Made by a program: the position numbers and the translations under genes. Source: Pseudomonadota bacterium (lineage in GTDB: Bacteria; Bdellovibrionota_B; Oligoflexia; Oligoflexales; CAIYRB01). Taken from it: 41,964 nt of DNA. Under the pieces are notes generated by a model. It saw only the letters and a list, made by a program, of their open reading frames with translations, searched no databases and was not told where the DNA came from. Shown here piece after piece: positions 1 to 40,206 of this stretch (positions are counted from its first letter, which is position 1; each line of letters opens with the position of its first letter). The DNA lies in assembly GCA_031416315.1 (NCBI GenBank), contig JANOTL010000119.1, positions 1 through 41,964 of the forward strand, given 5' to 3'.

Positions 1-64
1 GGCCGAAGGTCGCGGCGGTCGCGGCACCGGTTTTCAGGAGGCTGCGACGAGAAAGCTGAGACAT
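1..64 (-). CDS. 5' end of a Tat-exported protein (truncated by window edge); DUF1501-like by context only
   Basis: Reverse complement reads ATG TCT CAG CTT TCT CGT CGC AGC CTC CTG AAA = MSQLSRRSLLKTGAATAATFG, a twin-arginine signal (S-R-R-x-L-L-K). GAGGA RBS overlaps the upstream TGA stop (73-75). Confidence 0.75.
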   Translation of the reverse strand, partial: MSQLSRRSLLKTGAATAATFG

Positions 65-72
65 GGTCGTCC

Positions 73-849
73 TCATTTTCGGATCAAAAAGTGGGGGTTC
101 ATCATGATCGCCGTCATCATGCCGCGGACGGACGGCGCGCCGCCTTCGCCGCTGAGCGTCCCGAGCTCGCCGTCTTCGCCGAAGGCCGCGAGGAACGCGT
201 CCTTCTCTTCTTGGGGCGCATCGTAAGCCATCACCTCGTCCCAGAGCCGGTCCCTCGCCGCCACGATCTCGACGTCATCGCCCTGCTTGCAGAGCGGCAG
301 CAGGATGTCCACGAAAGAGTCGGAGAGCCGCATCTGATAGCCGACGTCGGGCGAGCCGGCGTCACAAACCTTCGCGACGTCCGCCGCAAGGCCGGAGACG
401 GCGAGATGCCAGAGGACGACGTTCACCGCGTTCGCCTTGCCGTTGCGGAAGCCGGAGCGCACGCCGTTGCCGGTCTCAACGCCGAGCAACTCCGGCAGGC
501 CGAACGCGCGCTGGCGGGAGTAGCTGTCGAGATAACGGCCGAGGTAGAACTGGTCGCTCGCCTCGAGGTCGAGCATGCGGTCGCGCACGGCGCCGTCGAT
601 CGCGAAAAAACCCTTAAAATCGGCCACCGCCTCGTTCACTGGCTCGTCGACGACGAGGTCTGGACCGGCGGGCTCCGGCGCGGGGTCGTCGGAACCCTTC
701 GCCGGCAGGCCGTCGCCTTCACCATCCGCATCGGGCCCCGGCTGCTCGTCCGGCTCGTCGCCCGCTTCCTTGCGGCCGCACCCGCTGCCGACGAGCGCCG
801 CGGCGAGCACGAGCGCCAAAATTTTCACCAGTCCGAGCTCGCTCATCAT
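73..849 (-). CDS. Lipoprotein of unknown function (258 aa)
   Basis: Hydrophobic signal with lipobox-like LVGSG-C, an acidic D/E/P linker, then a globular domain ending MMTAIMMNPHFL. ATGA overlap with the upstream gene. Confidence 0.8.
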   Translation of the reverse strand: MMSELGLVKILALVLAAALVGSGCGRKEAGDEPDEQPGPDADGEGDGLPAKGSDDPAPEPAGPDLVVDEPVNEAVADFKGFFAIDGAVRDRMLDLEASDQFYLGRYLDSYSRQRAFGLPELLGVETGNGVRSGFRNGKANAVNVVLWHLAVSGLAADVAKVCDAGSPDVGYQMRLSDSFVDILLPLCKQGDDVEIVAARDRLWDEVMAYDAPQEEKDAFLAAFGEDGELGTLSGEGGAPSVRGMMTAIMMNPHFLIRK

Positions 850-2870
850 CGCGCCTTCTCCTTGTACGCCCAGAGGTAGATCGTTTCGCGGTCTTCCGCG
901 GAGATGAACTGGTTGAGCGGCATGCGACGGTCGCGGTCGCCGCTCTCGAGCCGGTCGACGATGCGTTGCATCGTGTCTTCGCGACCAATCTGGACGCCGT
1001 CCTGCACGTGCTGAAATCCAGCGCCGCCGTCATCCAGCCGGATCCAGGTCGTTAGGCTCAAGCCGCCGGCGCCGCCGCTCCCACCGTGGCAAGAAGCACA
1101 GTTCTTCTCGAGCACGTGCATCACGCGGCAAGGGGGGCCGGCATCGGTGCCGCCTTCTCGCGGCAAGCGGTCGTAGCACTGCGAGGAGATCGGATCGGGC
1201 TCAGAGAAAGTGTTGCCCAGGACGAGGCGCGCCACGGTGTTGCGGACGGCGGTCGTCGAGCTCGTCTCCGCCTCGGAGGCGAATTTCGCCGCGAGGTAGT
1301 CGAGCCAGCCCGGATCGATCGCCTGGCCTTCGCCGTTGAAGCGCTCGAACATGCGGCGCACCAGGCACCTTTTCGGTTCCGGCGCCGTGCGCAGGAGCGC
1401 GAAGAGGTCGTCCAGCGACTCCCCGTACGAATTCAGGGAAGAGTCGTCGACCGAGCGCACGTAGCCCACGTCCCAAGTCCGGCCCGAGCCGTCGGGCGCA
1501 CGCCAGGCATCGGCGTAGGTGTCGTGGTCGGCGCGAGCCTGGTCGTCGAAAATGATCTCCTTCGCCTTGCTGAAGTCGAGGCCGACGATGCCTTTGTCGC
1601 GGAAGTAGCCGGCCATCGGGTCCAGCTTGTAGTGGCAGGATTGGCAAGCCGGCTCGGAGGCGTGGCGACCGCCCGCGTGATCGTCCGGGATGGTTTGGTT
1701 GATCGGCGTCAGGTCGTCGCAGAAAAAGCGCTTCAACATGTAGGCCGCGCGGCGGCGGTTGTAGTTCGTCGACGAGTTTTGCACGCGGAAGAAGAAGGTC
1801 TGCGAGAAGGAGGGCTGCGGCGCCAGCCCCAGCGGCGCGGTGTCGATCGCTTTGATGCCGGCGAGGCCGGAGGCAGCGTAGGTGGCGGAGTCGAAGGTCG
1901 CGAGCGAGCTGAACAAGGCGCCAAGGGTCGCCTCGGCGCGCGCCAGATTCCCCGAAAGATCCGGCTTCGGATAGGGCGGGAGGAAGCAGTAGAACAGGGC
2001 GTCGCCGAACCAGGCTTCGGTCAAAGCCTGCACGAGCTCGCTCGGGACGCCGTAGTCGTCCAGGAGATCGTCGACGGTCTGACCCTCCTCCGGGAACAAA
2101 CGGCCGCAGTACTCGGCCTGCGTCGTGTCCGGATTCATCACGAAGGCGCGAAGCGCTTGCACCTCCGCGACGATCAGGGGGCGCAGCGTGGCGCGGATCG
2201 TCTCCTGCGGAATCTCAGGCTCCTCCGAGCCGGAGCCCGGCTCTTGCGGGTCCGCGTCGCCGCCTTCACTTCCAGTGTCGGGAAGCTCGGCCTTTTCCAG
2301 CGGCTTCAGATAGAGCGGCTGGCGCGCGTCGAAGAGCGTCAGATAATCCCCGCCGCCTTCAAGCGCTTTCGCGGCGCTCAGCGCGGCGGGCAGCGTCATG
2401 ACGTCGTCGGCCAGCATGCCGTCGTCGCCGATGATGCGGCCTTCGCGAAAACCCAGGAACCAGAGGTTAAACTCGAGCATCCGCTCGGCAAAGCCCGGCT
2501 CGGCGAGGAGGCGCCCTACGAACTCGCGGCGCGGCAGCGCGCGGAGCTCCGCGGCGTCGGCGCGCGTCGAAAGCTCGCGTCCGGTCAGGGCCAAGGCGGT
2601 CTTGCCGTACCACCAGGCTTCACGGCCTTCCGGCAGCGCGGCCGGCGACTCGAGCGGGTCGACGAGGCTCGCGACCACGGGCTCGACGCTCGGCACGGTC
2701 GCGACGGCCTTGTCCGCGTCGACCGGTGCGGGCGCCGCCGGAACGTCCGGATGCGCTGGCGACTGCGGTCGGTTTTTATCGTCTTTCCGACCGCAACCAC
2801 CACCGGTAACGGCGACCAGCGCGCTGGCAATCAATGCGCGGCGTAGGGCTTCCACGAGAGCGTCCTCCAA
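846..2870 (-). CDS. Di-CxxCH c-type cytochrome lipoprotein (DUF1588/PSD-like region + C-terminal planctomycete-cytochrome-like domain)
   Basis: Signal ending TGGG-C. RAAYMLKRFFCDDL...HASEPACQSCHYKLDPMAGYF resembles DUF1588. C-terminal VLEKNCASCHGG..GGLSL...RMP..IS..D..TI..W resembles PSCyt1 (His/Met ligation). Start codon (TTG 2870) is uncertain. Confidence 0.8.
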   Translation of the reverse strand: MEDALVEALRRALIASALVAVTGGGCGRKDDKNRPQSPAHPDVPAAPAPVDADKAVATVPSVEPVVASLVDPLESPAALPEGREAWWYGKTALALTGRELSTRADAAELRALPRREFVGRLLAEPGFAERMLEFNLWFLGFREGRIIGDDGMLADDVMTLPAALSAAKALEGGGDYLTLFDARQPLYLKPLEKAELPDTGSEGGDADPQEPGSGSEEPEIPQETIRATLRPLIVAEVQALRAFVMNPDTTQAEYCGRLFPEEGQTVDDLLDDYGVPSELVQALTEAWFGDALFYCFLPPYPKPDLSGNLARAEATLGALFSSLATFDSATYAASGLAGIKAIDTAPLGLAPQPSFSQTFFFRVQNSSTNYNRRRAAYMLKRFFCDDLTPINQTIPDDHAGGRHASEPACQSCHYKLDPMAGYFRDKGIVGLDFSKAKEIIFDDQARADHDTYADAWRAPDGSGRTWDVGYVRSVDDSSLNSYGESLDDLFALLRTAPEPKRCLVRRMFERFNGEGQAIDPGWLDYLAAKFASEAETSSTTAVRNTVARLVLGNTFSEPDPISSQCYDRLPREGGTDAGPPCRVMHVLEKNCASCHGGSGGAGGLSLTTWIRLDDGGAGFQHVQDGVQIGREDTMQRIVDRLESGDRDRRMPLNQFISAEDRETIYLWAYKEKAR

Positions 2871-2920
2871 AGCGTTTCACGGGCAAGTGTCACGGGAACG
2901 CGATGCTAAGAGCACGGACC

Positions 2921-2937
2921 GTGCCAAGGCGGCGCAG
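2921..2937 (-). promoter_or_regulatory. sigma54 (-24/-12) promoter
   Basis: Minus strand TTGGCACGGTCCGTGCT versus consensus TGGCACG-N4-TTGCW. GG and GC are exactly 10 nt apart. Lies ~50 nt upstream of the cytochrome gene start. Confidence 0.8.
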
Positions 2938-3007
2938 ACACTCCGAAAGCCTTGAGCCGTGCGGAAAACGCGGGTTTTAGACGAGTAAACGCGCGGCGCA
3001 TCGCCAC

Positions 3008-3033
3008 GACCTGTTGCCGAGCGGCAACAGGTC
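3008..3033. promoter_or_regulatory. Palindromic site 1 (candidate upstream activating sequence)
   Basis: GACCTGTTGCCG-AG-CGGCAACAGGTC, perfect 12-bp arms; core CCTGTTGCC-N4-GGCAACAGG. Confidence 0.7.
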
Positions 3034-3054
3034 TACGGGTGAGAATTGGGCGCG

Positions 3055-3076
3055 CCTGTTGCCCGTTGGCAACAGG
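3055..3076. promoter_or_regulatory. Palindromic site 2 (candidate upstream activating sequence)
   Basis: CCTGTTGCC-CGTT-GGCAACAGG. Arms are identical to site 1, the spacer differs, and the centres are 45 bp apart. Confidence 0.7.
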
Positions 3077-3098
3077 TTCAGTCGTCGGTCGACGGCCA

Positions 3099-4529
<1,431 letters not shown>

Positions 4530-4611
4530 GCGAAGAGCTCCTGCAATGGGACCTTGACGAGCTGTATCAGCCGGGCGGCTCCGGGCGCAAGGATCCTTCC
4601 GATCGGGACCA

Positions 4612-6042
4612 TCACGAGACTCCCGCGTCCGGCGCGCCGCGGGGCAAGGCGTGGAGCGGCAGGCGCAGCGTGAACACGCTGCCTTTGCCGCCGGTCGAGG
4701 TCAGATCGAGCGACCCACCGTGATCCATCGCGATCTTGCGCGCGATCGCCAGCCCCAAGCCCATGCCCTTCTCGCCGTCGCCGGTCGAGCGCGTCGTGAC
4801 GTAGGCGTCGAACAAGGTCTCGCGCAAGGTCTCCGGCACGCCGCCCGCGTCGTCCATCACGTCGACGACCGCGCCGTCCGCCTCGCGCCGGAGGCGAAAG
4901 CCGACCTCGACCGCCTGCGGCGCCTTGGCGAGGCGGGCGTTGTTCACCAGATTGTGCAGGATCTGCGCGATCATCGCGCGATCGAGGACGACAGGGTAAG
5001 GCCCCGGCTCGCCGCCCATGGTAAACTTAGGTCCGTTTATCACGAGGTTCCTTTGGGCGAAGTCCCGCACGAGGTCCTCGAGATCGCCCGCCTCGAGCCG
5101 CGGCTCCGGCAAGCGGGCGAACGCGGTGAACTCGCGCACCATGCGCTCGAGCGAAGAGGTCTCTTCGTAGAGGACGCGGCCGGCCTCCTCGAGGAAGCTC
5201 GCCGTTTCGCCCGTGGCCGCAGCGCCCCGGCGCTTGAGCTCGGCCGCGACGAGGCTGATCGGGGTCAGCGGGTTCTTGATCTCGTGCGCGACTTTCCGCG
5301 CGACGTTCTGCCACGACTGCATCTTCTCCGTCAGGACGAGGCGCTGCCGAGCTTGATCCAGGTCTTCGGCCATCCGCTCCAGCGCCCGCGCCAGCATCCC
5401 GACCTCGTCTGTGCCCCGGGTCAAAGGCGGCGCCTCCGCCAGCTCGCCGACGGCGATGCGCCGGGTATAGTCGACCAACGCGGAGACCCGCGCGGCGATG
5501 CGCCGCGACAGGAGCCAGATGCCGAAGAGCCCGAGGATCGCGGCGCCGAAGAGCGCGAGGCCGAGCGCGACGAGGAACGAGCGCGTCAGCTCCGGCAAAA
5601 GCAGGCTCAGGTGCTCGCGCCGGCCGATCACCTCGCTCACGGCCTCGAAGCGCGGCTTCATCTCGTCCCAGTCGAAGCGCGCGCGTACGAGCTTTTTGCC
5701 GTCGCGGAAGACGTAGGCCTTCTCGCCCTCCCAGCGCGGCACGGCGCCCGGGTCGTCTTCAGCCAACTCCTCCCACGCGATCGTGACGTCCGGGACCGTA
5801 CAGGCGGCGACACGGCCGGCGTCGCGGCAATTGGCGATCAAGGCCTCGGCGCTCGCACGGCGCAGCTTGTGGCCGTCGAGCAGCGCCTTGCGCTCGTCGG
5901 TCAGGGCCTCGGTGACGCCTTTGTCTTCCGCTAGCGCGGCGACGCGCTCGAGCACCCCTTGGCCGGCGAGGAAGCCGGCGGCGCCGATGACGACGGTCGT
6001 GCCGACGACGACCGCGGCGAAGCGCGAGCCGATCGAGCTCAC
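4612..6042 (-). CDS. Membrane sensor histidine kinase (2 TM, HAMP, HisKA, HATPase; NtrY-like)
   Basis: HAMP segment DEVGMLARALERM. H-box WQNVARKVAHEIKNPLTPI, EFTAFARLP, N-box NLVNNA, G-boxes DDAGG and GMGLGL. GTGA overlap with the upstream gene. Confidence 0.95.
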   Translation of the reverse strand: MSSIGSRFAAVVVGTTVVIGAAGFLAGQGVLERVAALAEDKGVTEALTDERKALLDGHKLRRASAEALIANCRDAGRVAACTVPDVTIAWEELAEDDPGAVPRWEGEKAYVFRDGKKLVRARFDWDEMKPRFEAVSEVIGRREHLSLLLPELTRSFLVALGLALFGAAILGLFGIWLLSRRIAARVSALVDYTRRIAVGELAEAPPLTRGTDEVGMLARALERMAEDLDQARQRLVLTEKMQSWQNVARKVAHEIKNPLTPISLVAAELKRRGAAATGETASFLEEAGRVLYEETSSLERMVREFTAFARLPEPRLEAGDLEDLVRDFAQRNLVINGPKFTMGGEPGPYPVVLDRAMIAQILHNLVNNARLAKAPQAVEVGFRLRREADGAVVDVMDDAGGVPETLRETLFDAYVTTRSTGDGEKGMGLGLAIARKIAMDHGGSLDLTSTGGKGSVFTLRLPLHALPRGAPDAGVS

Positions 6043-7313
6043 TGGGTGAACCGGGCGTGATCCGGGAAGAAATAGCGCACCATCGTACGATCGAGCCCCG
6101 GGTCGCCGTAGACGAAGGCGAGGTCGATCTGGGTGCCGCTGTACGTCGCGCCGAGGGCCACTTTCCAGCGGAAACGCTTCGGGTCGTCCTGATCAAAATC
6201 CGAGACGTCGACGGCCTTTTCCTCGCCGTAGGTGAAGCCGAGGACGGTCGTGCCGAGGAAGACGAACTCGTAGGTTGCCGAGAGATCGTAGCTGCGCCGA
6301 AGGTCGGTCCGGCAGTCGTCATTGTAGCAGCTCATCATGTACGAGAGGTCGTAGATCCCCGTCGGCGTCAACGCGTGCGGCCCGACCATCCAAGTACGCG
6401 CCGCGTTCACCGTCGCCAGCGGCGGCTGGACCTCGGGCGCATAGCCGCGCATGTACTGGACGCTGGCGACGAGGCCGGGCTCGACGCGGCTAATAAAGGG
6501 CTTGTCGCTGTAGCGCGCGTTCACAATCCAGTACGTGAAGTAGGCGTGGCCGTTCTCCTTGCCGAAACCCCGCGACTCGTAGCGGTAGTCGCTCATGCCG
6601 CGCATCCATGTGGCGCTGCCGCTGAGGAGGCCGACGCGCCGGCCGAGCGTGAGATGCGCGACGCGCATGTAGCTCGTCGATTCGCCGTGATAGTCAGGGC
6701 CTTCATCATACTGCGCATCGCTCGTCGACTGGCCGCCGGAATATAGGAGATTCACGCCTGCGAACCACGGCGTGCCGAAGATCGCCGGCTCGTACAGCGA
6801 GGCGCGCCCGACGACGTGGCCGTTGGTGTGGCTGGAGCTCTTTTCCTCGCTTCGCTCTTCGTTTCGAAAGACCGCGAGCTCCCCGCGGAGACTCGTGCCG
6901 AAGAGAGCACGCGAGCCGACGAAAGCCTCGGCAAGCATCGAGGTGTCGCTCAAGACCTCGTTCTCCTTGCGCGCTCGCACCGAGGTCAGGCTCGCGCCCT
7001 GATAGACGACGCGCGCCGCACCTAGGACGACGGCCAGGCGGTAATGATCACGGACGGCGCCCTTTACGAGGCGCATGTCGATCGTGCGAAAAAAGGCGAG
7101 CGCGTCGAGGCGCCTTCGCGCGCCCTCGATCTCGAGGTCGAGCTTCTCCCGCGACAGCGGTTTTCCGGCGGGAATGCCGATCATGGATTCGAGGAACTCG
7201 CGCGAGATCCCCGAGCCGCCGTCAAAGTCGATGCCGTCGAGCACGACCTCGCCTTCGGCTGCGAAACTGGCGGACGCGCAGAGGACGGCAAGGAGGAAGA
7301 GGAAGCGACTCAT
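6039..7313 (-). CDS. POTRA-domain outer-membrane protein (Omp85-like), paralog A
   Basis: Start re-called at ATG 7313 (MSRFLFLLAVLCASASFA signal peptide; ATGA overlap). POTRA-like VVLDGIDFDG...RRRLDALAFFRTIDM, followed by alternating amphipathic beta-strands. Confidence 0.7.
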   Translation of the reverse strand: MSRFLFLLAVLCASASFAAEGEVVLDGIDFDGGSGISREFLESMIGIPAGKPLSREKLDLEIEGARRRLDALAFFRTIDMRLVKGAVRDHYRLAVVLGAARVVYQGASLTSVRARKENEVLSDTSMLAEAFVGSRALFGTSLRGELAVFRNEERSEEKSSSHTNGHVVGRASLYEPAIFGTPWFAGVNLLYSGGQSTSDAQYDEGPDYHGESTSYMRVAHLTLGRRVGLLSGSATWMRGMSDYRYESRGFGKENGHAYFTYWIVNARYSDKPFISRVEPGLVASVQYMRGYAPEVQPPLATVNAARTWMVGPHALTPTGIYDLSYMMSCYNDDCRTDLRRSYDLSATYEFVFLGTTVLGFTYGEEKAVDVSDFDQDDPKRFRWKVALGATYSGTQIDLAFVYGDPGLDRTMVRYFFPDHARFTQ

Positions 7314-7864
7314 TGCCGCACCTCGCAATCCCGCTCGTGCGACTGCGTCTGGTGCATGCTGACCATGGCGGCAGCGGCGCGGCCGAAGAGGGCCTTCGAG
7401 TTGCCGCCGATGCCTTTTTCCGCGAGCCATTCGCGCGTTTTCGCGGCCTGCTCCTCGCTCACGGGGTCGACGACGGTGACCACCGTGACCCGGTCGCCTC
7501 CGGCCAGGGCCCAAGCGGGAGCGCCGGCGTTGCAGGCCTCGAGCGCTTTGGCGCGATCCTTCTCGATCCGCTTCGAGCCGCCGAAAGGCGTGACGCCGTA
7601 AGTCTCGTCCCAGAGGTCGAAGTAAATCTTGCAGCCGAAGACGTGCGTCCCTTCTTTGCCGGCTAAGCTAGCTTGATGAACGATGGTGACCGACAGGCCC
7701 TTCGCGAGCTTCGCCGTCACTTCGGGAAAGGTCGCCTCGACGTCTTCTAGCTTGATCAACGCGCGCCCCGCCGTGCCGGCCGTGGCGACGCAGCCTCCCG
7801 CCGCGTCGGCGCCGGGTGCGAGCAAGTTGAGCAGGGCCAAGAGGGCCGCCAAGATCTTCCTCAT
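7310..7864 (-). CDS. Secreted protein, DUF4390-like (184 aa)
   Basis: Signal peptide MRKILAALLALLNLLAPGADA. Motif AKLAKGLSVTIV...CKIYFDLWDETY. Sits upstream of an NtrY-like kinase, where DUF4390 genes typically occur. Confidence 0.6.
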   Translation of the reverse strand: MRKILAALLALLNLLAPGADAAGGCVATAGTAGRALIKLEDVEATFPEVTAKLAKGLSVTIVHQASLAGKEGTHVFGCKIYFDLWDETYGVTPFGGSKRIEKDRAKALEACNAGAPAWALAGGDRVTVVTVVDPVSEEQAAKTREWLAEKGIGGNSKALFGRAAAAMVSMHQTQSHERDCEVRQ

Positions 7865-9195
7865 GGCTCACCTACCCGGGCTCGGTTGCTCAGATGCTGT
7901 TCTTGCAGGTTCAAGCCTTCCAATCCGTAAACGAGGCGAAGACTGGCGAGGAACGAGCTGGTGCCCCATTTCAGCACGAGCTGCGTCCTTCGCCCAGACA
8001 AAGTGCCAGGATCCCCATGCAAGGTCGCGTCGCGCACGTACGCATGCTCAAGGCCGACGACCAGGGCCCCGGTGCCGACGAGTTCGTAGGTCAGGCCCAG
8101 GTCCGACTGGCGATGATCCCGCTTCCAGTCCACGACGGCGGCAGGGGTGAAAGCATGGCGCTCAGCGACGAGGAGCGTATCCAGTAGCGAGGCGGTCCAC
8201 GTCGGCGGCTCGACGTCTTCCGTGTCGCCCGCGCCGTAACCACGCTCGAAGCCGATGCGCGCGACGATGCCGGGCTCGACCAAGGCCAAACGCGACTTTT
8301 CCGAGTAGACCGTCTCGACGGAGAGGAAGCTGAACCAGCCGCGCTTGCGAAAGCCTCGCTCCGCATCCGGCTGCGCGAAGGTCGACACGTAGTCGACGCG
8401 GGACTTGCCGCCCGAGGTGATCCGGCCGCGGCCGAAAGCGGCGTTGAGGGAAGCCAGGCCAAAACGCCAGCCCGCGAGGACGGCCCCGAGCTGGAAGTTG
8501 GTCGCGCCGCGATTCTCGTAACGACCGACGGGAAAGCGTCCCGAGTTCGCCCAGGGCTGCTCCGCGTGCACGCCGATCAGGCCCAAATGCGCGTGCGAAT
8601 CCTGGATGTCCGGCCAGTAGGCCGAGGCGTGGACGCGCTCGTCCTTCCAGGCGTTCTCGGCGTCGCCGTGACGGTGGCTGAAGGTCTCACGCGAAACCTC
8701 GAGGTCGAGGCGCGCGCCCGTGCCAAACAGATCCCGCGTCCCTCCGAACAGCGCGCTGCGCGTCGCGCGCTCGGCGACGACCTCGTTCGTGCGCCGCGCG
8801 ACCGCGTCGACGCCGAAGTATGTGGCGCTCTTCCGGACGAGGGTCGCAATGACGCGGAAGCTGCCGCGAATGGCGCCGCGCTCCAGAGCGAAGTCGACGC
8901 TCTCGTAGATGCCGAGCGCCATCAGCCGCTCCCGAGCGAGCTCCAGCCGGACCGCGAGATCTTCGTGACTCAGGGGTTTTCCGACCTCGATCTCGAGAGC
9001 TTTCGCGGCGAAGACGCGCGCGCCGCCACGCACGCCCCGGACGTCCACCGCCTCGACCGTCACCAAAGGTGTCGACGCCGCAGCGAGAGCCTGCGGCTCG
9101 CGCAGCGTCGCGAGGCAGAGCACGCCGAAAAAGATGAGGCGGAGGCGATCCGTCATGAGGGACTCATGATCCACGGGGGCGTCTGAGAAAGCCAT
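7861..9195 (-). CDS. POTRA-domain outer-membrane protein (Omp85-like), paralog B
   Basis: Signal peptide (alternative start ATG 9156). POTRA-like VTVEAVDVRG...RERLMALGIYESVDF. Shares GKPLS, R.LFGT, VEPG, RGY, HAxTP and VYG..GL with paralog A. Confidence 0.7.
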   Translation of the reverse strand: MAFSDAPVDHESLMTDRLRLIFFGVLCLATLREPQALAAASTPLVTVEAVDVRGVRGGARVFAAKALEIEVGKPLSHEDLAVRLELARERLMALGIYESVDFALERGAIRGSFRVIATLVRKSATYFGVDAVARRTNEVVAERATRSALFGGTRDLFGTGARLDLEVSRETFSHRHGDAENAWKDERVHASAYWPDIQDSHAHLGLIGVHAEQPWANSGRFPVGRYENRGATNFQLGAVLAGWRFGLASLNAAFGRGRITSGGKSRVDYVSTFAQPDAERGFRKRGWFSFLSVETVYSEKSRLALVEPGIVARIGFERGYGAGDTEDVEPPTWTASLLDTLLVAERHAFTPAAVVDWKRDHRQSDLGLTYELVGTGALVVGLEHAYVRDATLHGDPGTLSGRRTQLVLKWGTSSFLASLRLVYGLEGLNLQEQHLSNRARVGEP

Positions 9196-9330: not shown

Positions 9331-11133
9331 TCACCCCGCCTGAGCCTCAGCCCCCGGCAAAGTCCGCAACAAATCCGCATCCCGCGTCTGCCCCGGAATG
9401 CATCCCTGCCACTCGCCCGACTTCGCCAGCTGCTTCCTCACGTCGCCGACGTTCGGCGTGTTCGAGCAGAAGTCGTCTTCGCCGGCCAGGCCGTCGCCGT
9501 CCATGTCGGCATTCGAATCGTAGCCGCCGAGCAAGGAGTCCGAGACGTCCTTGTCGCGCATCTGTCCGGGCGCGCAGCCGGCCCATTCGCCGGCGCCGTG
9601 GGTCACGGGCTTCAGGTCGGCAGATCCGGGGGTATTCCAGCACTGGTCGACCGCATTCTGGACGCCGTCACCGTCGTAGTCGGTACCGCTCGCGGTGGTT
9701 CCATGCCCTTCACTGAGGCCGAAGGCGCCGCCGCATTGATACGCGGGACAACCCGCCATGTAGAGGTAAGGTCCGGCCAAGCCATGCACGATCCGCGAGG
9801 TGCCCGCTATGACCCAGCTCGCGACGTTGACGGTTGCGCGGGCGACCGCGCCGACCGCGTGCGCGCCAACGCGGACGATGCCCACCGCGAGACGACCCGT
9901 CGCTCGGACGGTGGCCGCGACGATGCGCGCGCCGCCGCGGATGACGGCGGCGCCGCCGCGCACCAAGGCGACACCAACGCGGACGCCAGCGCGAGCGACG
10001 CCAAAAGCGACACGACCCACAGCGACGCCGGTATGCACGATGCCGCGGCCGATGCCGACCGCGAGCCGCGCGAACGGCCGCGCGATGCCGCCCACGACCC
10101 CCCGTAGGATGCGACCGCGCAGGCTCGAGCCTTCACTCTCGCCGGCCGATTGATCGATCTCCTTGGCCAACTTCGGCAGGTCCGACTCTTCGTCGACCTC
10201 GGGGAACTGCGTCGCCAGCGCCTCCAGGTCTTTGACGAAGGGCGTGAAGGCCGCATTCGTCTCCGGGAAGTCCTTGACCATGGTCGCGCGCGTGTCAGCG
10301 TTGCAGTAGAAGGAGTCGAAAGCCTCCGCGAAGACGAAGTCGCGCAGGAGCTCGGGCGCGTCGCCGTCGGGCTCGACTTTCAGAGCGTACGACTCCAGCG
10401 CCTTCATGTCGTAGCGGGAATTTTCCTGCGCGGACGCGCTTGCCAATTCGCGCATGAAGGTGCGCGCGAGCTCGCTCGTGCGGCTTTCGAACTGGCGGTC
10501 GCCGTCGCTCACGTCGACGTCTTGGGGAACGGCGAGCTTGGTGAGATGCTGCGAGACGATGTAGCCGAATGCGCGCACGGTCTGATGCGACAGCGAGCCC
10601 TCGCCGCCGGAGAGGTAGATCACCTGCTTCACCGGGCGCACGTTCTTCCCTTCGAACTGCAGCTCCTCGGCGGCGACGTCGCGCCAGCAGAAGCCGTCGA
10701 CCTGGCCGCGGTCGGTGACAAAAGCCTCTTCGTTCGCGTCCTTGAACTTCGCCGGCCGCTTGCCGCATTCCTCTTTCGTCGTGTCGCTGACGACGATGGC
10801 GCCGCCGGAGTCGAAAAAGCCGACGAGCGCCGCGAACGGCACGGCGACGAGCGACGCCTTCAGCTCTTCGCGCGCGCGCTGCGCGTCGCCCTTCATGTCG
10901 ACGCTGACAAAGCCGGCGTCGGCGACGAGCTCGTCGAGGAGCTTCTTTTTCGCCGCGGGGATGTCGAGATCGCCGGCCTGGTCGGGATCGTTGGTGCCGC
11001 ACAGATTGTGGCGGAAGTCGGCGTTGGCCGAGCGCGCCAGGTTGTCGAGGGACTTGACCTCGCTCGTCCTTTGCGTCGACTTGCAGCCAGGGACTAGGAC
11101 CGCAAGGAGAAGCGCGTAGCTTGCAAAGCGCAT
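9331..11133 (-). CDS. Multidomain lipoprotein: ATLF-like domain, Arg/Gly/Ala/Val amphipathic repeat, two TSP type-3-like repeats
   Basis: Lipobox LVPG-C and GAGGA RBS. FVFAEAFDSFYC..TR..M...FPET; low-complexity aa 339-454; DYDGDG..DQC..TP..GC and DMDGDG..DFC..TP..GC. Confidence 0.8.
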   Translation of the reverse strand: MRFASYALLLAVLVPGCKSTQRTSEVKSLDNLARSANADFRHNLCGTNDPDQAGDLDIPAAKKKLLDELVADAGFVSVDMKGDAQRAREELKASLVAVPFAALVGFFDSGGAIVVSDTTKEECGKRPAKFKDANEEAFVTDRGQVDGFCWRDVAAEELQFEGKNVRPVKQVIYLSGGEGSLSHQTVRAFGYIVSQHLTKLAVPQDVDVSDGDRQFESRTSELARTFMRELASASAQENSRYDMKALESYALKVEPDGDAPELLRDFVFAEAFDSFYCNADTRATMVKDFPETNAAFTPFVKDLEALATQFPEVDEESDLPKLAKEIDQSAGESEGSSLRGRILRGVVGGIARPFARLAVGIGRGIVHTGVAVGRVAFGVARAGVRVGVALVRGGAAVIRGGARIVAATVRATGRLAVGIVRVGAHAVGAVARATVNVASWVIAGTSRIVHGLAGPYLYMAGCPAYQCGGAFGLSEGHGTTASGTDYDGDGVQNAVDQCWNTPGSADLKPVTHGAGEWAGCAPGQMRDKDVSDSLLGGYDSNADMDGDGLAGEDDFCSNTPNVGDVRKQLAKSGEWQGCIPGQTRDADLLRTLPGAEAQAG

Positions 11134-11175: not shown

Positions 11176-11589
11176 TTAGCGGGAGGGGCGCGTCGGGGCA
11201 AGCCCTAAACGGTCGGCCGGACAGTGACCGGGACGGGGGCCCACCTCCGGAAATTGCCGGCAAACCTGCGGTCGCGTCGCGTAGGTCCCGCAGCGCCGCG
11301 TCTCGGCATCCAGGTAGCGACAGTCCCCGTTCGCCTTCTTGCCCAAGAAAAAGGTGCCGCTGATCGGGTTGAATTCGCGGATCGCGCCGGAAGCGAGCAA
11401 AGGACGCGCCGCTTTGCGCAAAGAGCCGCGCGCTTCGGCCGCCGACAAGAGGCCTAGGCGCACGAGGTCAGCGGGCGATGCCTCGACCGGCAGGGAGCAG
11501 CAATGGGCGCGGCAGCCCTCGCAAAGGCCGGGCTTCCACGCGGGCCAGCGCGAAGGCAGATCGAGATCCTCGAGACCTTGCTCCGTCAC
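11176..11589 (-). CDS. YkgJ-family cysteine-cluster (Zn/Fe-chelating) protein
   Basis: CEGCRAHCC...C.YL....C..Y..RP.VCRQFP motif. Confidence 0.85.
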   Translation of the reverse strand: MTEQGLEDLDLPSRWPAWKPGLCEGCRAHCCSLPVEASPADLVRLGLLSAAEARGSLRKAARPLLASGAIREFNPISGTFFLGKKANGDCRYLDAETRRCGTYATRPQVCRQFPEVGPRPGHCPADRLGLAPTRPSR

Positions 11590-11605
11590 GGCATGGTCCT
11601 GCGCC

Positions 11606-12577
11606 TCAGCTGCCGTAGCCGGGCTTGGTCGCGAGGCGATGGGTCGACTTCAGCTCGCGCGTCGTGCCAGTCTCCGAGCGCATGACGATCGAGTGCGTGT
11701 GGGCGTGGCCGCCGTAAACCTTGACGCCTTCGAGGTAGCTGCCGTTGGTGATGCCGGTGGCGATGAACATGACGTTGCCGCGAGCGAGCTCTTCGGCCGA
11801 GTAGACCTTGTTCTCGTCGGTGATGCCCATTTTTTTGGCGCGGGCGCGCTCGTGGTCGTTCCGGAACTTGAGGACGCCCTGCATGTCGCCGCCCAAGCAG
11901 CGCAAGGCCGCCGCGGTGATCACGCCCTCGGGCGCGCCGCCGATGCCCATCAGGATGTCGACGCCGCTCATCGCGTTCGCGGTCGCGATTCCGGCCGAAA
12001 CGTCGCCGTCGCCGATCAGGCGGATGCGGGCGCCAGAGCTGCGGAGCTCGGCGATCAAGTCCGCGTGGCGCGGGCGGTCGAGGACGATGACGAGCATCTC
12101 GCTGACCGATTTCTTCAGGGCCTTGGCCACCGACTGCAGGTTCCAGGTCGGGCTCTTGGTGATGTCGATCGAGCCCTTTGCCTGGGGGCCGACGGCGAGC
12201 TTGTCCATGTAGGTGTCGGGCGCGTGCAGGAAGTTGCCGTCCTCGGCGGCCGCGATCACCGATAGGGCTTCGCTGCGGCCCATCGCCGTGATCGAGGTGC
12301 CTTCGAGCGGGTCGCAAGCGATGTCGATGCGCGGGCCTTCGACGCGGCCTTCGGCCGAGCCGATCTTCTCGCCGATGTAGAGCATCGGCGCCTCGTCGCG
12401 CTCGCCTTCGCCGATGACGATGGTGCCCGAGAACTTGATCGAGTCGAAACTCTTCCGCATCGCCTCGACGGCGGCGTGGTCGGCCTCGTTTTCCTTGCCG
12501 CGGCCGATCCAGGGGCTGACCGCCAGGGCGGCGGCTTCGGTGACGCGGACGAACTCGAGGGCTAGGTTGCGGTCCAT
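11606..12577 (-). CDS. glpX: Class II fructose-1,6-bisphosphatase
   Basis: Start re-called at ATG 12577: MDRNLALEFVRVTEAAA. VIGEGERDEAPML, DPLEGT, APDTYM, IGDGDV, GIGGAPEGV. Confidence 0.97.
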   Translation of the reverse strand: MDRNLALEFVRVTEAAALAVSPWIGRGKENEADHAAVEAMRKSFDSIKFSGTIVIGEGERDEAPMLYIGEKIGSAEGRVEGPRIDIACDPLEGTSITAMGRSEALSVIAAAEDGNFLHAPDTYMDKLAVGPQAKGSIDITKSPTWNLQSVAKALKKSVSEMLVIVLDRPRHADLIAELRSSGARIRLIGDGDVSAGIATANAMSGVDILMGIGGAPEGVITAAALRCLGGDMQGVLKFRNDHERARAKKMGITDENKVYSAEELARGNVMFIATGITNGSYLEGVKVYGGHAHTHSIVMRSETGTTRELKSTHRLATKPGYGS

Positions 12578-12657
12578 GTGGTGCGACTCCCGGCGGTTGA
12601 AGGCGCCTGTTCTACCACGCGCTCTGCATCGCAGAAAGTCCCGAAACCACGGCCGGT

Positions 12658-13491
12658 CTAGGGCGGCCCGAACGACCCCTCGGGGTCGGCGAAAGCCCGC
12701 TCGACCACCTTCGCCAGACCGGCGGCGTGGACACCGTCGATGATGCGGTGGTCGAAGGTGACGCCGAGGCTGGCGACGGTCCTCACCACCGGTACCCCCG
12801 AGGCGGCGACGACCCGGGGGCGCGCGGCGCCCAGAGCCAAGACCATCGGCACGCGGGAGTACGGGACCAAAGGCGCCAGCGCGAAGTCGAGCCCGAGCGA
12901 GCCGACATTGGTGATCATCACGCTGCCGAGCGGGTCCTTGGGCGTGCCGAAGAGCGGCGTCCAAATGTTGAGCCCGAACTGCACGAAGCCGGCGAAGTCC
13001 ATCACCAGGCCCGAGATCCACCCCGGCAGAAGCTCCATCAGCCGCTTCATTCGAGCGTAGCTCTTGTCCTTCCCGGTGCGGACGCCGCCGACCTTCTCGC
13101 TCATCTCGCGCGCGATCGTCTCGACCGACTTCGTCTCGGCGGCGAAGACGCGCACGCCCGATAGATCCTCGCCGGCGGCGTCCGTCGCGACCTGAAAAAA
13201 GAGGGTCACGGCGCGTCGCGGATAAACGGCGCCGAAGCGCAAGATCCCGTTGATCGCGGGCTTCTGCCGGAAGGCTTCGGCGACGGCGCGGCCGAGGAAG
13301 TGCGTCAACGTCACCTTGAGGCCGGTGCGCTCGGAGATCCGGCGCACGTAGGCCAGCGCCGCGTCGCACTCCAAATCCATCGCGCCGTAGACGGTCGGAT
13401 CCTTGGCGGTGCGCCACGTGCCGATCGCCATTTTGCGCCACGCGCTCGTTCGCAGCGGCGGCAAAAGGTCGAGATGGCGCTCGAAAAGCAT
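12658..13491 (-). CDS. 2-oxoacid dehydrogenase E2-type acyltransferase, catalytic domain only
   Basis: ITNVGSLG and catalytic TFDHRIIDG; no lipoyl or E3-binding domain (277 aa). Confidence 0.85.
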   Translation of the reverse strand: MLFERHLDLLPPLRTSAWRKMAIGTWRTAKDPTVYGAMDLECDAALAYVRRISERTGLKVTLTHFLGRAVAEAFRQKPAINGILRFGAVYPRRAVTLFFQVATDAAGEDLSGVRVFAAETKSVETIAREMSEKVGGVRTGKDKSYARMKRLMELLPGWISGLVMDFAGFVQFGLNIWTPLFGTPKDPLGSVMITNVGSLGLDFALAPLVPYSRVPMVLALGAARPRVVAASGVPVVRTVASLGVTFDHRIIDGVHAAGLAKVVERAFADPEGSFGPP

Positions 13492-14381
13492 CAGCTGACG
13501 ATGGGAAGCGCGAGCGAGAGGCTCGGGCCGCGCTCGAAGCGCAAGGTGTCGCCGTACTTCAGGTCGAGCGAGCCGTGCTGGCCGTCGAGCGCGAGCAGCG
13601 CCAGCGGACAGCGGTTCTCGATGACGACCGATTCCACCGCGGCGTCGAAGAGCCCGCCGTCGATCATCGGCTGGGGGCGGGCCAGGCGGTAGAGCTCACG
13701 GATCTTGAACTGGAAGAAGACGTCGTCCTTCGGGCGGGGCGCGCCGCCGGCGGCGAGGATGGCCGCCGTCGAGCCGACGCCCGTGGCGATCCAGATGCCG
13801 CTGGAGCGGTGCAGCTCGGTCTCGCCGCGAAAATGGATACGATAACGGGTGGTTGCGGCCGGGTTGGCGTTGGTGTACAGGAAGTCGTTCAGGATCGGGA
13901 CCGTGCGCGTCTCGGCCGAGGTGCCGGCGAAGTCGGCGTGCTTCACGATGCAGACCAGGCGGTTCACCGTGACGAAACGCGTGCGCTTCGCGAGCAGGGA
14001 TTTGACCAGGGCCTCGGGGTCGTCGGGGCCGGCGCAACAGAGGTAACCGACACTGGACTCGGAGGAGCGCACGCCGTAGATCGGCATGCCGTCCGCGATG
14101 TGGTGCGAGGCGGACAGGAGCGTGCCGTCGCCGCCGACGGTGAGCACGGCCTCGTACTTCGCGCCGCGGGTGCCGTCGTCTTCGCGGCTCACGAGATCGT
14201 AGTCGACCTTCGCCTTCTCCATCGCGTCCTTGAGGCGCGAGAGCGTGGCGTAGTGCTCGGAATGCGCCTTCACCAGCCGCGCGAGCGCGTCGGGCGAGAC
14301 GCGCCCCGCTTGCACGCGCGCTTCGACGGCAGGACCGTGAAGCTCGTAGTTCGTGGTCTTGGTGACGATGAGGACGCGCAC
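13491..14381 (-). CDS. nadK: NAD(+)/NADH kinase
   Basis: VGGDGTLL, LND, SSGIWIATGVGSTA, DG. Start re-called at GTG 14381 with AGGAAGGGAAG RBS. Confidence 0.85.
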   Translation of the reverse strand: MRVLIVTKTTNYELHGPAVEARVQAGRVSPDALARLVKAHSEHYATLSRLKDAMEKAKVDYDLVSREDDGTRGAKYEAVLTVGGDGTLLSASHHIADGMPIYGVRSSESSVGYLCCAGPDDPEALVKSLLAKRTRFVTVNRLVCIVKHADFAGTSAETRTVPILNDFLYTNANPAATTRYRIHFRGETELHRSSGIWIATGVGSTAAILAAGGAPRPKDDVFFQFKIRELYRLARPQPMIDGGLFDAAVESVVIENRCPLALLALDGQHGSLDLKYGDTLRFERGPSLSLALPIVS

Positions 14382-14406
14382 GCTTCCCTTCCTAGGACGG
14401 CTGGCT

Positions 14407-14466
14407 CCCGCCGGCAAGGCGAGCGCCGGCGCAGCCGGCCGCTACGGCGCTCGCCTTGCCGACGGG
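14407..14466. repeat. Long intergenic inverted repeat (17-bp perfect stem, 16-nt loop, short extension)
   Basis: CGGCAAGGCGAGCGCCG (14412-14428) pairs with CGGCGCTCGCCTTGCCG (14445-14461). No U-tract on either strand. Confidence 0.8.
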
Positions 14467-14482
14467 CGCCGGCACACTCGCT

Positions 14483-16102
14483 TCACCCGCCAGTTTCTTT
14501 GGCGGCCCCGTCGGCAGCAGCATCGTCTAGCGCCAGGAAATCCGGGTTCATCCAGATCTTCTGCTTCTTCTCCATGTCGTCTCTGATCTGCTTCTCGTAG
14601 AGATTGAAGAGCGCGTAGCCCTCGGAAAAGGAGGCGCTGGCGGTGAGCTCGCGCTTCTTGTCGAGGTCGAACTTCGACATGTCCGGGTCTTTTTTCGTTT
14701 TCAGGCGGACGATGTAGAGGTTGCCGCGGACGTCGAGGACCGCCGGGTGCACGTCGCCCGGGTTGCGTAGGCCGGCGAGGGCGTCCGAGACCTCTTTCGA
14801 GGAGCCGATGCCCGGGAGGTACTTGGTCGACGCCGGAAGCTCGCCCGTCGACGCCCAAGCCGTGCTGCTCGAGGCGAGGAGCGCGTCGACGTTGCCCTTC
14901 TCCTTGATCGCGGCGAGCACCTTCTCGCCGGTCTCCTTGGCGACTTTCGGGCGCTTCTCCTTACCGATGAGGGTCTCGGCGATCTGACGCTGCGCGTCCT
15001 CGAGCTTGGTGACCTTCGCGGCCTTCTTGTCCTCGACCTTGATGACGTGGAAGCCGAAGGGCGACTCGACGGCGCCCGAAACCTCGCCCGGGGCCATCTT
15101 AAAGGCCGCTTCGCTGAACTCGGGCACCATCGCCTCGCGGGCGAAAAAGCCCAAGTCGCCGCCCGAGCTCTTGCCCTGCGGCTCGTCGGTGTCCTTCTTC
15201 GCCAGGGCGACGAAGTCGGCGCCGGCAACCTTCGCCGCGGTGGCGATCTCTTCGGCGCGCTTCTGCGCCTCTTCCTTCGTGCGCTTCGCGCCGTCCGGGG
15301 TGGCGTTGCGCGAGCCCTTGTAGCCGACGAGGATGTGGCGGGCCTTCACCTGCTCGGCGGTGTTGTACTCTTTGACGTTCTGGTCGTAGTGCTCTTTCGC
15401 CTTGTTTTTGGTCGTCTCGTCGGTGAGAAACTTGTCGATCTCAGCGGCGTCGATCTTCACGTCGACCTTCTGCGGATCGAACTTAAGGTACTCGAGGTCG
15501 AGCTTCGTCTCGTTCAGGCGGTAGTCGAGCTCGGCGGATTTCGTCGACACGAGGGCCGTGTCGGTGACGAAGCGGCGCATCTTCTGCACGGTGACGTTGC
15601 GGCGGACCTCCTCGAGGAAGGACGCCTCGGTATAGCCCTGGGAGCGGAGGAAGTTCTCGAAGCCTTCCTCGGAGAACTGGCCGTTTTCGCCCTTGAAGGT
15701 GTCGCTCTTCTTCAGGAGGTCCAGGACCTCCTCATCGGAGGCCTTGAGGCCCAAATCGATGGCCCGGATGTAAAGCGCGCGGTCGTCGACCAGCTCTTTC
15801 ATGACGTTGTGCGCGAGGCGCAGCGCTTGCGGGTTGAATTGATCGGAGAATTGGCGCTGGTAGCGCTCGTAGGCGACGCGGTACGCGCGGTTGAACTCGG
15901 CGCGCGAGATCACCTCGCCCTCGACGACGGCGGCGGAGCCGGACATGCCGGCCGTGGTCCCGGTCCGCTGACTGGTCGGGTCACAGACGCCGAAGAAGGT
16001 CATCGCGCCGAGCGCCGCCAGCAGAACGGCGTACGTGGTGTAGTTCTTCTTGAGCTTGGCGGCCTCGAGGCCGTGGAGGCTCTTATCTTTCATCTTCCAC
16101 AT
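14483..16102 (-). CDS. ppiD: PpiD/SurA-family peptidyl-prolyl isomerase chaperone
   Basis: N-terminal TM, SurA-N domain, parvulin motifs KARHILV, GGDLGFF, MVPEF and SPFGFHVIKV. Start re-called at ATG 16102 (GGAG RBS). Confidence 0.85.
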   Translation of the reverse strand: MWKMKDKSLHGLEAAKLKKNYTTYAVLLAALGAMTFFGVCDPTSQRTGTTAGMSGSAAVVEGEVISRAEFNRAYRVAYERYQRQFSDQFNPQALRLAHNVMKELVDDRALYIRAIDLGLKASDEEVLDLLKKSDTFKGENGQFSEEGFENFLRSQGYTEASFLEEVRRNVTVQKMRRFVTDTALVSTKSAELDYRLNETKLDLEYLKFDPQKVDVKIDAAEIDKFLTDETTKNKAKEHYDQNVKEYNTAEQVKARHILVGYKGSRNATPDGAKRTKEEAQKRAEEIATAAKVAGADFVALAKKDTDEPQGKSSGGDLGFFAREAMVPEFSEAAFKMAPGEVSGAVESPFGFHVIKVEDKKAAKVTKLEDAQRQIAETLIGKEKRPKVAKETGEKVLAAIKEKGNVDALLASSSTAWASTGELPASTKYLPGIGSSKEVSDALAGLRNPGDVHPAVLDVRGNLYIVRLKTKKDPDMSKFDLDKKRELTASASFSEGYALFNLYEKQIRDDMEKKQKIWMNPDFLALDDAAADGAAKETGG

Positions 16103-16265
16103 ACGCACGCCGCTCCATCGAGGAATCGAGAAAGTGATAGACCCTAAGCTGTAGCACACGATGCGGGGGTCGTGCTAACAAGCATCCTTGTCTCGATCCC
16201 CAAGCTTTCAAAGAGTGTAGCGCCCGATCTCATCGGACGTTTCACGAATCTTTCCCCCATCTTAA

Positions 16266-17311
<1,046 letters not shown>

Positions 17312-17312
<1 letters not shown>

Positions 17313-18205
17313 TGATGATGAGCCGAGGCAAAAGGCTACTCTTCACCGCGCTCCTCGTGAGCGCCGTGTTGTCGCCGTTCATTTTTTTCTCGGCGCCCTT
17401 GAGCGCTTGGAAAGGCTCGAATCCCGCGGTGATGATGCTGCAGGACGCGCTCTATCCGATCGAGCGCGTCTGGCACGGCGTCACCAGCGGCTTGGGCAAG
17501 GTGATGTCGACCTACGTCTTCGTCACCGGCGCCGCGGACGAGAACGCGAAGCTGCGCTCGCAGCTCGCGGGCGTCCAGGCGCGCATCATGGACTACGAGG
17601 AGCAGGTGCTGGAGAACGAGCGCTTGCGCCGTCTCCTCGGCTTCAGCAACCGCAGCGAGAAGAAGTTGATCGCGGCCGAGGTGATCGGCGTCAGCGAGAA
17701 CGCGCCTTTCCAATCGATCCGGATCACGCGCGGGCACACGGCCGGCGTGAAGCCGGGGATGCCGGTCGTCGCGGCGGACGGCATCGTCGGCAAGGTGATC
17801 CGCACCGGCGCCTATTTCTCCGACGTGCAGCTCCTCGTCGACTCGGATTTCCACCTCGACGTCCTTCTGCAGAGAACGCGCGTGCGCGGCGTCCTCTCCG
17901 GCGCCGACCGCCAGCATTGCACCTTGTCCCTAAACAAGAGGGTCGAGATCCGCATCGGCGACACCCTGATCACTTCGGGGATCGTCGGCGGCTTTCCGAA
18001 GGGCATGCCGATCGGGCGCGTGATGCGCATCACGTACGAGTCCGACAACGTCGCCCAGACGATCACGGTCGAGCCTTGGGTCGACTACCGCCGCCTTGAA
18101 GAAGTGATGGTGATCTTCAACGAAGATCAGGAGCTCGCCAAGATCGTCGAGACCGCGGGGCCGGAATGGCTCGGACGCGCGCTCGGCGACCCTGCGGGAG
18201 GCTGA
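17312..18205 (+). CDS. mreC: Rod shape-determining protein MreC
   Basis: N-terminal TM, coiled coil ENERLRRLL, GMPVV..GIVGKV, GDTLITSG..G.FPKG. Directly follows mreB. Confidence 0.95.
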
Positions 18206-18209
18206 GCTT

Positions 18210-38085: not shown

Positions 38086-38381
38086 GAATCAAGTTCGCCG
38101 AGACCGACCGCCAGAAAGTGCTCGCCGCCATCCAAACGACGATGGGCGATCGCAAGCTCGGGGACATGGTCTCCTTCAAGCTGGTGGCCGGCGGCCTCGA
38201 CGTCGTGATCTCGAAGATGGGCACCTCCACCATCTCCTTCAAGGAGAAGATGATGGACGACGGCATCGAGTACACGCTGGCAAACGAGAAGATCGCCTTC
38301 ACGCACAAGCCGTTCAAAGACGAAGTCACGCAGAAGATCGCCAAGGTGATCCAGTCCTCCGGCGGCAAAGTCACGGCGTGA
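38082..38381 (+). CDS. Hypothetical protein (99 aa)
   Basis: Strong codon bias; coupled by ATGA and GTGA overlaps on both sides. Confidence 0.85.
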   Translation: MRIKFAETDRQKVLAAIQTTMGDRKLGDMVSFKLVAGGLDVVISKMGTSTISFKEKMMDDGIEYTLANEKIAFTHKPFKDEVTQKIAKVIQSSGGKVTA

Positions 38382-39994: not shown

Positions 39995-40206
39995 TCGTCT
40001 GCCGTCGGCGCGAAACGGTCGAAACGCTTTCGCGTGTCGCGATTTCGAGGCATCCGTCGCATCGGCCGGGACGCGCGAAACTGTTCTGCGAACAGTCGTT
40101 TAGCGTTGCAGGCGCGCGCTCGTTCGTCGAAAACCAAAGTCGTCAAACTGAGTTATTTTTTTGTGTTCACGAGATTTCCACGATGCTTCCACGAAAGGAA
40201 TTCGAG

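Follow-up and report, generated by a model that had tools for sequence, protein, structure and literature searches.

A candidate envelope-sensing cassette with Omp85-like barrels, and a predicted sigma-54 switch for a dihaem/DUF1501 operon, in the Oligoflexales

The window analysed here is the whole 41,964-nucleotide contig JANOTL010000119.1 (contig C119) of a genome from the order Oligoflexales (G000; 6.36 Mb, 65% GC, 93% complete). The first 9195 positions carry eight genes, which encode an Omp85-like barrel (barrel B), a small exported protein, a second Omp85-like barrel (barrel A), a sensor histidine kinase, a sigma-54 activator, a predicted dihaem lipoprotein, another predicted lipoprotein and a DUF1501 protein with a twin-arginine translocation (Tat) signal. 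By sequence comparison, the front half of this region is a type II paralogue of a barrel/small protein/kinase/activator cassette that is order-wide in the Oligoflexales, and its activator very probably controls a sigma-54 promoter ahead of the dihaem operon through two palindromes. The initial annotation had described a candidate self-contained circuit with no known match; the locus is instead the second copy of this cassette, and G000 holds another on contig C115. It contributes a paralogue whose binding site is marked by a footprint and whose output is both defined and swappable. The reading of the whole, in which the barrel and the small protein serve as an outer-membrane input to the kinase and the activator switches the dihaem operon via the palindromes, is favoured, if only narrowly.

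Gene order and distribution of the cassette

Open reading frame (ORF) calls and the sequence itself bear out the initial description of eight co-oriented genes, all of which lie on the minus strand at the positions claimed for them. Overlaps of ATGA, ATGA and GTGA join barrel B, the small gene, barrel A and the kinase gene in turn, and a gap of 82 bp separates the kinase gene from that of the activator. Contigs overlapping the region from the probable source run exhibit zero differences to it, and read depth in that run is even across the region except at the conserved kinase and activator stretches, both results being from the same sample and not independent. No RNA holder is listed for the region.

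Searched with a profile of the small protein, the 131 genomes of the phylum yielded 45 matches spread over 40 genomes, all inside the window's order. The loci studied comprise every match and a metagenome locus with two copies (L028), minus a weak partial hit (L064) that was also left out of the trees, giving 46 copies. A barrel is encoded directly upstream of the small gene in 43 of the 46 copies and a kinase downstream of it in 44, and all four genes (barrel, small gene, kinase, activator) are found together in 40. Five of the six incomplete cassettes are near contig ends and the sixth, in G052, is a true exception. At this locus (L021; G052:C226) a transporter-like gene carrying a Usp domain occupies the place of the kinase behind the barrel and small gene.

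The trees of the small protein (support 100/98) and of the barrel (support 100) both separate type I from type II, dividing the 46 copies into 36 of type I and 10 of type II. The type II copies occupy nine loci, in seven genomes and one metagenome contig, across three families. The window cassette is of type II, and the type I copy of G000 (C115:126-5190, L029) consists of a barrel, small gene, kinase and activator with a GSFTGA motif, behind a nucleosidase-family gene. Type I copies lie behind a gene of this family at the loci listed, and their activator recognition helix is almost invariant over the order. Sigma-54-like motifs are found on the cassette strand at L056:4010, L060:7650 and L062:2913 (three genomes, one family), near the type I barrel or approximately 0.8–1.1 kb upstream of it, and type I autoregulation is possible.

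The two types also differ in their cysteines. A periplasmic Cys pair is present in 9/9 type II kinases and periplasmic Cys is wholly absent from 31 of 32 type I kinases, while the small protein has three or four Cys in type II and two in 35 of 36 type I copies. The extra type II cysteines read most plainly as structural disulfides. From these comparisons, the four genes are kept together and are diverging jointly into two types. Two barrels are present in the window as the initial annotation stated; the 'twin' arrangement is a local duplication, and most cassettes have one barrel. As an essential trait it was rejected, with two barrels at three of the nine type II loci, where the second barrel takes differing positions, and at none of the type I loci.

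The predicted sigma-54 switch and its outputs

The activator gene (3099..4529, minus strand) encodes a sigma-54 enhancer-binding response regulator with receiver, AAA+ and Fis-type helix-turn-helix (HTH) domains identified by Pfam, and the intact GAFTGA loop noted initially is present in the sequence. The protein falls under the NCBIfam cut-offs for NtrC, AtoC, NtrX and ZraR, scoring 378 bits against NtrX, for which the cut-off is 600. G000 holds a single copy of rpoN and 18 full activator domains. The recognition helix ER[TS]T[VI]HKW is absent from the other 17 domains and is common to the type II activators of G000, G032, G056, G065, L028 and G073:C401. Two sigma-54 activator genes elsewhere in the genome (C126:2323 and C126:15862) lie in opposite orientation with identical scores and C-termini, and may represent a recent duplication or an assembly artefact.

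Between the activator gene and the dihaem gene are a distal palindrome (3055..3076; CCTGTTGCC-N4-GGCAACAGG) and a proximal palindrome (3010..3031), which have identical 9-bp arms and 4-bp spacers and are likely activator binding sites. These two are the only exact copies in the 6.36 Mb of G000. They are followed by a sigma-54 -24/-12 promoter motif (2911..2926, minus strand; TGGCAC-N5-GTGCT), one of 14 strict matches in G000, and the palindrome centres sit 95.5 and 140.5 bp upstream of the promoter GG. The initial annotation had reported the palindromes with identical arms, the promoter and a tight cytochrome-lipoprotein-Tat operon behind them, and all are present.

Control of this promoter by the activator is proposed because the palindrome recurs upstream of sigma-54 sites in other type II genomes. 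Scored out of 18 against the window half-site alone, sites of 17/18 and 13/18 in G032, two of 15/18 in G035 and one of 15/18 in G056 lie upstream of a sigma-54 motif, at distances of 61–131 bp. G086 has a weaker 11/18 TGT-N12-ACA site 100 bp before a perfect sigma-54 motif, and its activator exhibits a changed recognition helix alongside the changed site. Sites scoring at least 15 number four in 108 kb of type II loci, against a background of six in the 6.36 Mb of G000 (two being the window's own), one in 445 kb of type I loci and one in 299 kb of other cytochrome loci. On this footprint, the palindrome accompanies the activators of type II and the sigma-54 sites, and the wiring claimed initially, from activator through palindromes and sigma-54 promoter to operon, is strengthened by the retention of palindrome and promoter in relatives. 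A perfect palindrome is also found at L108:4501 (G056:C3:537500), close to where two divergent genes encoding predicted exported proteins begin.

The palindromes could alternatively work in the RNA, as hairpins that terminate or stabilise the activator transcript at its 3' end, rather than as protein sites. They start 22 bases past the activator stop and fold as two stems (z = -3.66, 200 shuffles), but no U-tract follows them, and the G032, G035 and G056 sites are imperfect palindromes far from activator 3' ends that keep their spacing to the sigma-54 motif. This explanation is considered very improbable; a secondary role as hairpins, in addition to protein binding, may be served.

The first gene of the operon (846..2870, minus strand) encodes a predicted dihaem lipoprotein with a DUF1588-like CxxCH, a C-terminal cytochrome c CxxCH and a lipobox read by eye; the likely true start, also read by eye, is a GTG at 2855 behind GGAGG. 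The protein matches only PF07627 and PF13442, both under the cut-off, while one relative just passes PSCyt1; at least two CxxCH motifs are present in 36 of 37 homologues. Cytochrome c assembly genes are found three times in G000. The second gene (73..849, minus strand) encodes a predicted lipoprotein of no known family and is nearly always beside the dihaem gene. The third is represented by the 5' end of a DUF1501 gene (1..64, minus strand), which encodes a Tat signal with the twin-arginine motif and is cut by the contig end. The rest of this gene is on contig C174 of G000: the final 19 bases of that contig are identical to window positions 1-19, and the frame is open. The C174 frame exhibits 39% identity (E 2e-93) to a relative's DUF1501 protein, which serves as a bridge and itself scores 57.6 bits with a cut-off of 27.

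The dihaem/lipoprotein/DUF1501 operon adjoins the type II cassette at four of nine loci in three arrangements: downstream in G000, upstream in G035 and G086, and divergent in G056. The regulatory and cytochrome halves are in this way neighbours in relatives, and the refuting case set by the initial annotation, that they are never syntenic there, does not arise. For G086, the DUF1501 gene and the barrel start are on one contig and the remaining linkage is inferred across two contig breaks. None of the type I copies had the operon in its flanks. G000 holds four copies; upstream of the three outside the window (C138, C137 and C65; L022–L024) no palindrome or sigma-54 motif was seen, and on C65 the DUF1501 gene comes first.

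Chance adjacency, with a different G000 activator driving the sigma-54 promoter, was weighed against these data. The genome offers 18 full activator domains from which such a regulator could come, the operon occurs in 23 of the order's 95 genomes, mostly far from any cassette, and an unlinked copy in G034 has a weaker site together with a promoter. Linkage in four genomes and three arrangements argues against coincidence, as does the occurrence of the same site before a different target beside the G032 cassette. Among the 36 cytochrome copies with upstream DNA, moreover, the site and promoter tests are both passed by three of four linked copies vs one of 32 unlinked copies, using a consensus that was slightly relaxed after the relatives' sites had been examined. 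Five further unlinked copies have the promoter-like motif only, and approximately six copies are not first in their operon, so that the stretch scanned was not the promoter. L080 and L095 were excluded from this count for want of upstream DNA, and L095 was also omitted from the cytochrome tree. The site-linked copies do not form one clade in that tree, a fast one, in which the four changes counted do not fall below the number in shuffles. Coincidental adjacency is regarded as improbable.

The G032 locus encodes a 794-aa HExxH M48-like predicted lipoprotein (L014:719-3103) behind the conserved site and promoter, followed by the cassette. Because this different protein stands behind the same site, the output of the type II switch is, by comparison of loci, swappable. 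In G065, a protein of at least 732 aa (L015:3-2201), with no Pfam family and unrelated to the G032 protein, is encoded directly upstream of the barrel, its start and promoter being off the contig.

Periplasmic or surface redox chemistry is the likeliest candidate function of the haem/DUF1501 module. In the accessible part of PMC3542564, the authors propose electron transfer for DUF1501 modules, and this fits here because of the CxxCH motifs and Tat signal in the operon proteins. The footprint defines an activator, its binding site and the promoter through which the operon would be controlled. A locked-on activator could turn this long-unexplained module on at will, making its function testable.

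Barrels, small exported protein and the proposed relay

Barrel B (7861..9195, minus strand) is a predicted 444-aa protein with a signal peptide, one POTRA domain and a beta-barrel; this length follows the ORF call, although translation may begin at the in-frame ATG at 9156. Barrel A (6039..7313, minus strand; 424 aa) likewise has one POTRA domain and a barrel, and the two exhibit 29% identity across 435 columns. The 'Omp85-like' and 'DUF4390-like' labels of the initial annotation are supported. The window's own barrels, small protein and second lipoprotein have no Pfam match above cut-off, the POTRA match of barrel A (E 0.006) lying under it and barrel B having none, but profile and fold evidence back both labels. 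The nearest Atlas clusters of barrel B are Omp85/POTRA (scores 0.95–0.96), PF07244 (POTRA) is matched in 33 of 43 members of the barrel family at E up to 1 (best 1.1e-9), and the family profile matches BamA POTRA domains at E 2e-11. The model of barrel A, built from 10 sequences (mean predicted local distance difference test score, pLDDT, 79), contains the POTRA topology and 15 barrel strands listed by DSSP, against 16 in the BamA fold. Foldseek places BamA, CdiB and TamA at the top for this model, the best being BamA at E 2e-12 and a template modelling (TM) score of about 0.5, with TM scores of 0.37–0.58 over these matches.

The barrels depart from the family in several respects. Their barrel portion is short, at approximately 300 aa, and the PF01103 barrel domain is matched by none of the 43 members at E up to 1. 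A terminal aromatic residue is an outer-membrane barrel signal; none of the barrel sequences ends in Phe or Trp, and a C-terminal tail of 15–30 residues is present. The lid-lock motifs, defined in the accessible text of PMC11358297 as RG(F/Y/W) in loop 6 and FxDxG in strand 13, never occur together in one of the 43 barrels; one or the other is found in 11, at positions 160 to 299, and is not conserved. On profile and model evidence, the cassette barrels are best named divergent one-POTRA Omp85-like barrels. A long multi-POTRA frame on G000 contig C187, separate from the cassette barrels, is probably the housekeeping BamA.

The small gene (7310..7864, minus strand) encodes a 184-aa exported protein with four Cys and a signal peptide read by eye. 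It has no match to PF14334 (DUF4390; cut-off 27 bits), which matches one of 49 family members at E 0.0076 and none above the cut-off; across the 131 genomes PF14334 matched none, the controls being silent too. A profile of the 49-sequence family retrieves P0068 (E 7.4e-7), and HHalign aligns the family to it with 97.5% probability (E 6.7e-12, 175 columns). Because P0068 itself passes the PF14334 cut-off (31.3 bits vs 27), the small protein is, through this one bridging sequence, a divergent DUF4390 relative with full-length homology, akin to PlrP. Its model (pLDDT 88) is mixed alpha/beta. An Atlas search gave all scores below 0.8 and no lead, and a PDB sequence search gave no significant match.

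The kinase gene (4612..6042, minus strand) encodes two membrane helices, a periplasmic domain of approximately 134 aa that contains the Cys pair, and HAMP, HisKA and HATPase domains, as identified by Pfam. The HisKA box is AHEIKNPLTP, which we take to be NtrY-like. No PAS or PDC domain was detected in the kinase.

By analogy with bacterial enhancer-binding proteins, the kinase would phosphorylate the receiver of the activator, which would oligomerise on the tandem palindromes and open the sigma-54 complex, turning on the dihaem/lipoprotein/DUF1501 operon; confidence in these steps is high. The small protein would set the kinase/phosphatase balance through the kinase periplasmic domain, which is probable by analogy with PlrP. 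The most speculative step places the barrel at the input, with its POTRA domain holding the small protein, which would shift position when cargo load, damage or a ligand alters the outer membrane. This step is inferred, and our judgement only leans in its favour. The output would be a swappable set of exported lipoproteins. The barrel and small genes are the tightest pair in the cassette, being duplicated as a pair in L028 and found alone together in G052; because of this a physical partnership between their products fits, without its direction being given.

In the main rival explanation the wiring stands, but the barrels (alone or together with the small protein) belong to the output as a dedicated assembly or export channel for the regulated lipoproteins, co-regulated with the kinase and activator, and the kinase senses alone. 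Such a role agrees with PMC11358297, in whose accessible text the Omp85/TpsB proteins described assemble or translocate proteins, and with the outputs seen, which are predicted lipoproteins or Tat proteins. The cassettes of G032, G035 and G086 (the last across contig breaks) are on the same strand behind the site and promoter and could be co-induced, and in G052 the barrel and small gene occur without the kinase. In the window and G056, however, the sigma-54 promoter does not lie ahead of the barrels, and in G035 a strong hairpin separates the DUF1501 gene from the barrel. The 36 type I copies hold the barrel/small gene/kinase order beside a nucleosidase-family gene at the loci listed and not beside a cargo gene. 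The missing pair of lid-lock motifs and of a terminal Phe or Trp also speaks against an export channel, and the PlrP precedent links DUF4390 to a kinase. An export role is possible but doubtful.

Several observations weigh against the relay with an outer-membrane input. The proposed link from barrel to small protein to kinase is one predicted from sequence; G052 has no kinase beside its barrel and small gene; and characterised Omp85 proteins, in the part of PMC11358297 available, insert or translocate proteins and do not signal. The kinase periplasmic domain, with 26 sequences aligned, has no PDB or consistent Pfam match to a known sensor fold. Five of the nine type II loci lack the cytochrome operon in the flanks fetched. 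In G034 (82% complete), where no type II cassette was found, a sigma-54 motif and a 13/18 site stand before the cytochrome gene, and the cytochrome copy of G073, sister to that of G086, has neither site nor promoter. The perfect site on G056:C3 has no sigma-54 motif within 200 bp, and when two mismatches are allowed, the motif and its reversed control occur at about equal frequency in most genomes. To these are added the folding of the palindromes into two RNA stems and the kinship of the genomes compared, whose counts are not independent trials.

A hairpin lies between barrel B and the next gene (9331..11133), which encodes a 600-aa predicted lipoprotein with a long Gly/Ala/Val-rich stretch, thrombospondin type 3-like repeats and two distant paralogues on C169 and C121. 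This protein was rejected as a cassette part, there being no homologue at any other cassette locus. Positions 11179-20770 encode ordinary neighbours, namely a CxxCxxCC protein, a glpX fructose bisphosphatase, a 2-oxoacid acyltransferase-like domain, an NAD kinase-like protein, a SurA/PpiD-type isomerase, MreB, MreC and a penicillin-binding protein. Positions 38378-41721 encode an NAD(P)H-hydrate repair enzyme followed by a match to the transglutaminase elicitor family (E 3e-40).

Comparison with known systems

The literature search found no paper on a barrel-DUF4390-kinase-sigma-54 cassette, subscription papers being mostly outside the set searched. The cassette barrels share a signal peptide, a BamA-type POTRA domain and a best fold match to BamA with the Omp85/TpsB proteins (BamA, TamA and the Sam50-type with one POTRA) described in the accessible text of PMC11358297. 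They are unlike these proteins in combining a single POTRA domain with a short barrel, an unmatched PF01103, unconserved lid-lock motifs, a C-terminal tail and a fixed linkage to a kinase.

Sigma-54 activators of the NtrC family bind tandem upstream sites. The window is like these systems in its receiver-AAA+-HTH activator, the rpoN gene in the genome and TGT-N12-ACA tandem palindromes approximately 95 and 140 bp upstream of the -24 GG. It is unlike the named members in missing their NCBIfam cut-offs and in having its own recognition helix, site and targets.

The output operon resembles the planctomycete DUF1501/cytochrome modules in the part of PMC3542564 available, in which a Tat-signal DUF1501 protein is likewise co-transcribed with an exported CxxCH protein. 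The partners in the window are a DUF1588-like dihaem lipoprotein and a second lipoprotein, unlike the PSCyt1, PSCyt2 and PSD1 of those modules. That text names no regulator, whereas a candidate regulator is identified here by its footprint.

The Rcs system (RcsF-BamA-IgaA) and the TonB-dependent receptor/anti-sigma systems couple an outer-membrane barrel to a cytoplasmic transcription switch via a periplasmic partner. The likeness to the cassette is in logic only, with no common components found, and the cassette differs in having a dedicated barrel paralogue within its own operon and an output through sigma-54. We tentatively propose, while giving it somewhat less credence than its converse, that a relay across the envelope (barrel, DUF4390 protein, NtrY-like kinase, sigma-54 activator) has taken over an Omp85-family barrel as its outer-membrane receptor, making it a class of cell-surface signalling separate from the Rcs and TonB-dependent systems, and that the type II copy is a portable switch placed on different exported outputs, in the window the haem/DUF1501 module. 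If true, such a permanent connection to a kinase would give the Omp85 family a new function and would offer a novel means of sensing the outer membrane.

The closest known system is PlrP-PlrS-PlrR of Bordetella, in which, according to the accessible text of PMC13001219, PlrP (DUF4390) is the third component of an NtrYX-family system and restrains the phosphatase activity of PlrS through the PlrS periplasmic domain. No mention of Omp85, the outer membrane or sigma was found in that text, and PMC5192318 mentions DUF4390 once in its accessible part, with no bearing on the cassette. In both systems a DUF4390-type gene lies 5' of a gene for a two-helix HAMP kinase, overlapping or abutting it (44 of 46 cassette copies), although in the window barrel A sits between the small gene and the kinase. 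The cassette has an Omp85-like barrel upstream where Bordetella has rsmB, and it has a sigma-54 output, both of which PlrP-PlrS-PlrR lacks. Beta-proteobacterial NtrX has no AAA+ domain in the same account (PMC13001219), whereas the cassette regulator retains AAA+ and GAFTGA. The cassette resembles PlrP-PlrS-PlrR in its predicted working and is not a member of it, and it extends the idea of a DUF4390 third component, as in PlrP, past the beta- and gamma-proteobacteria.

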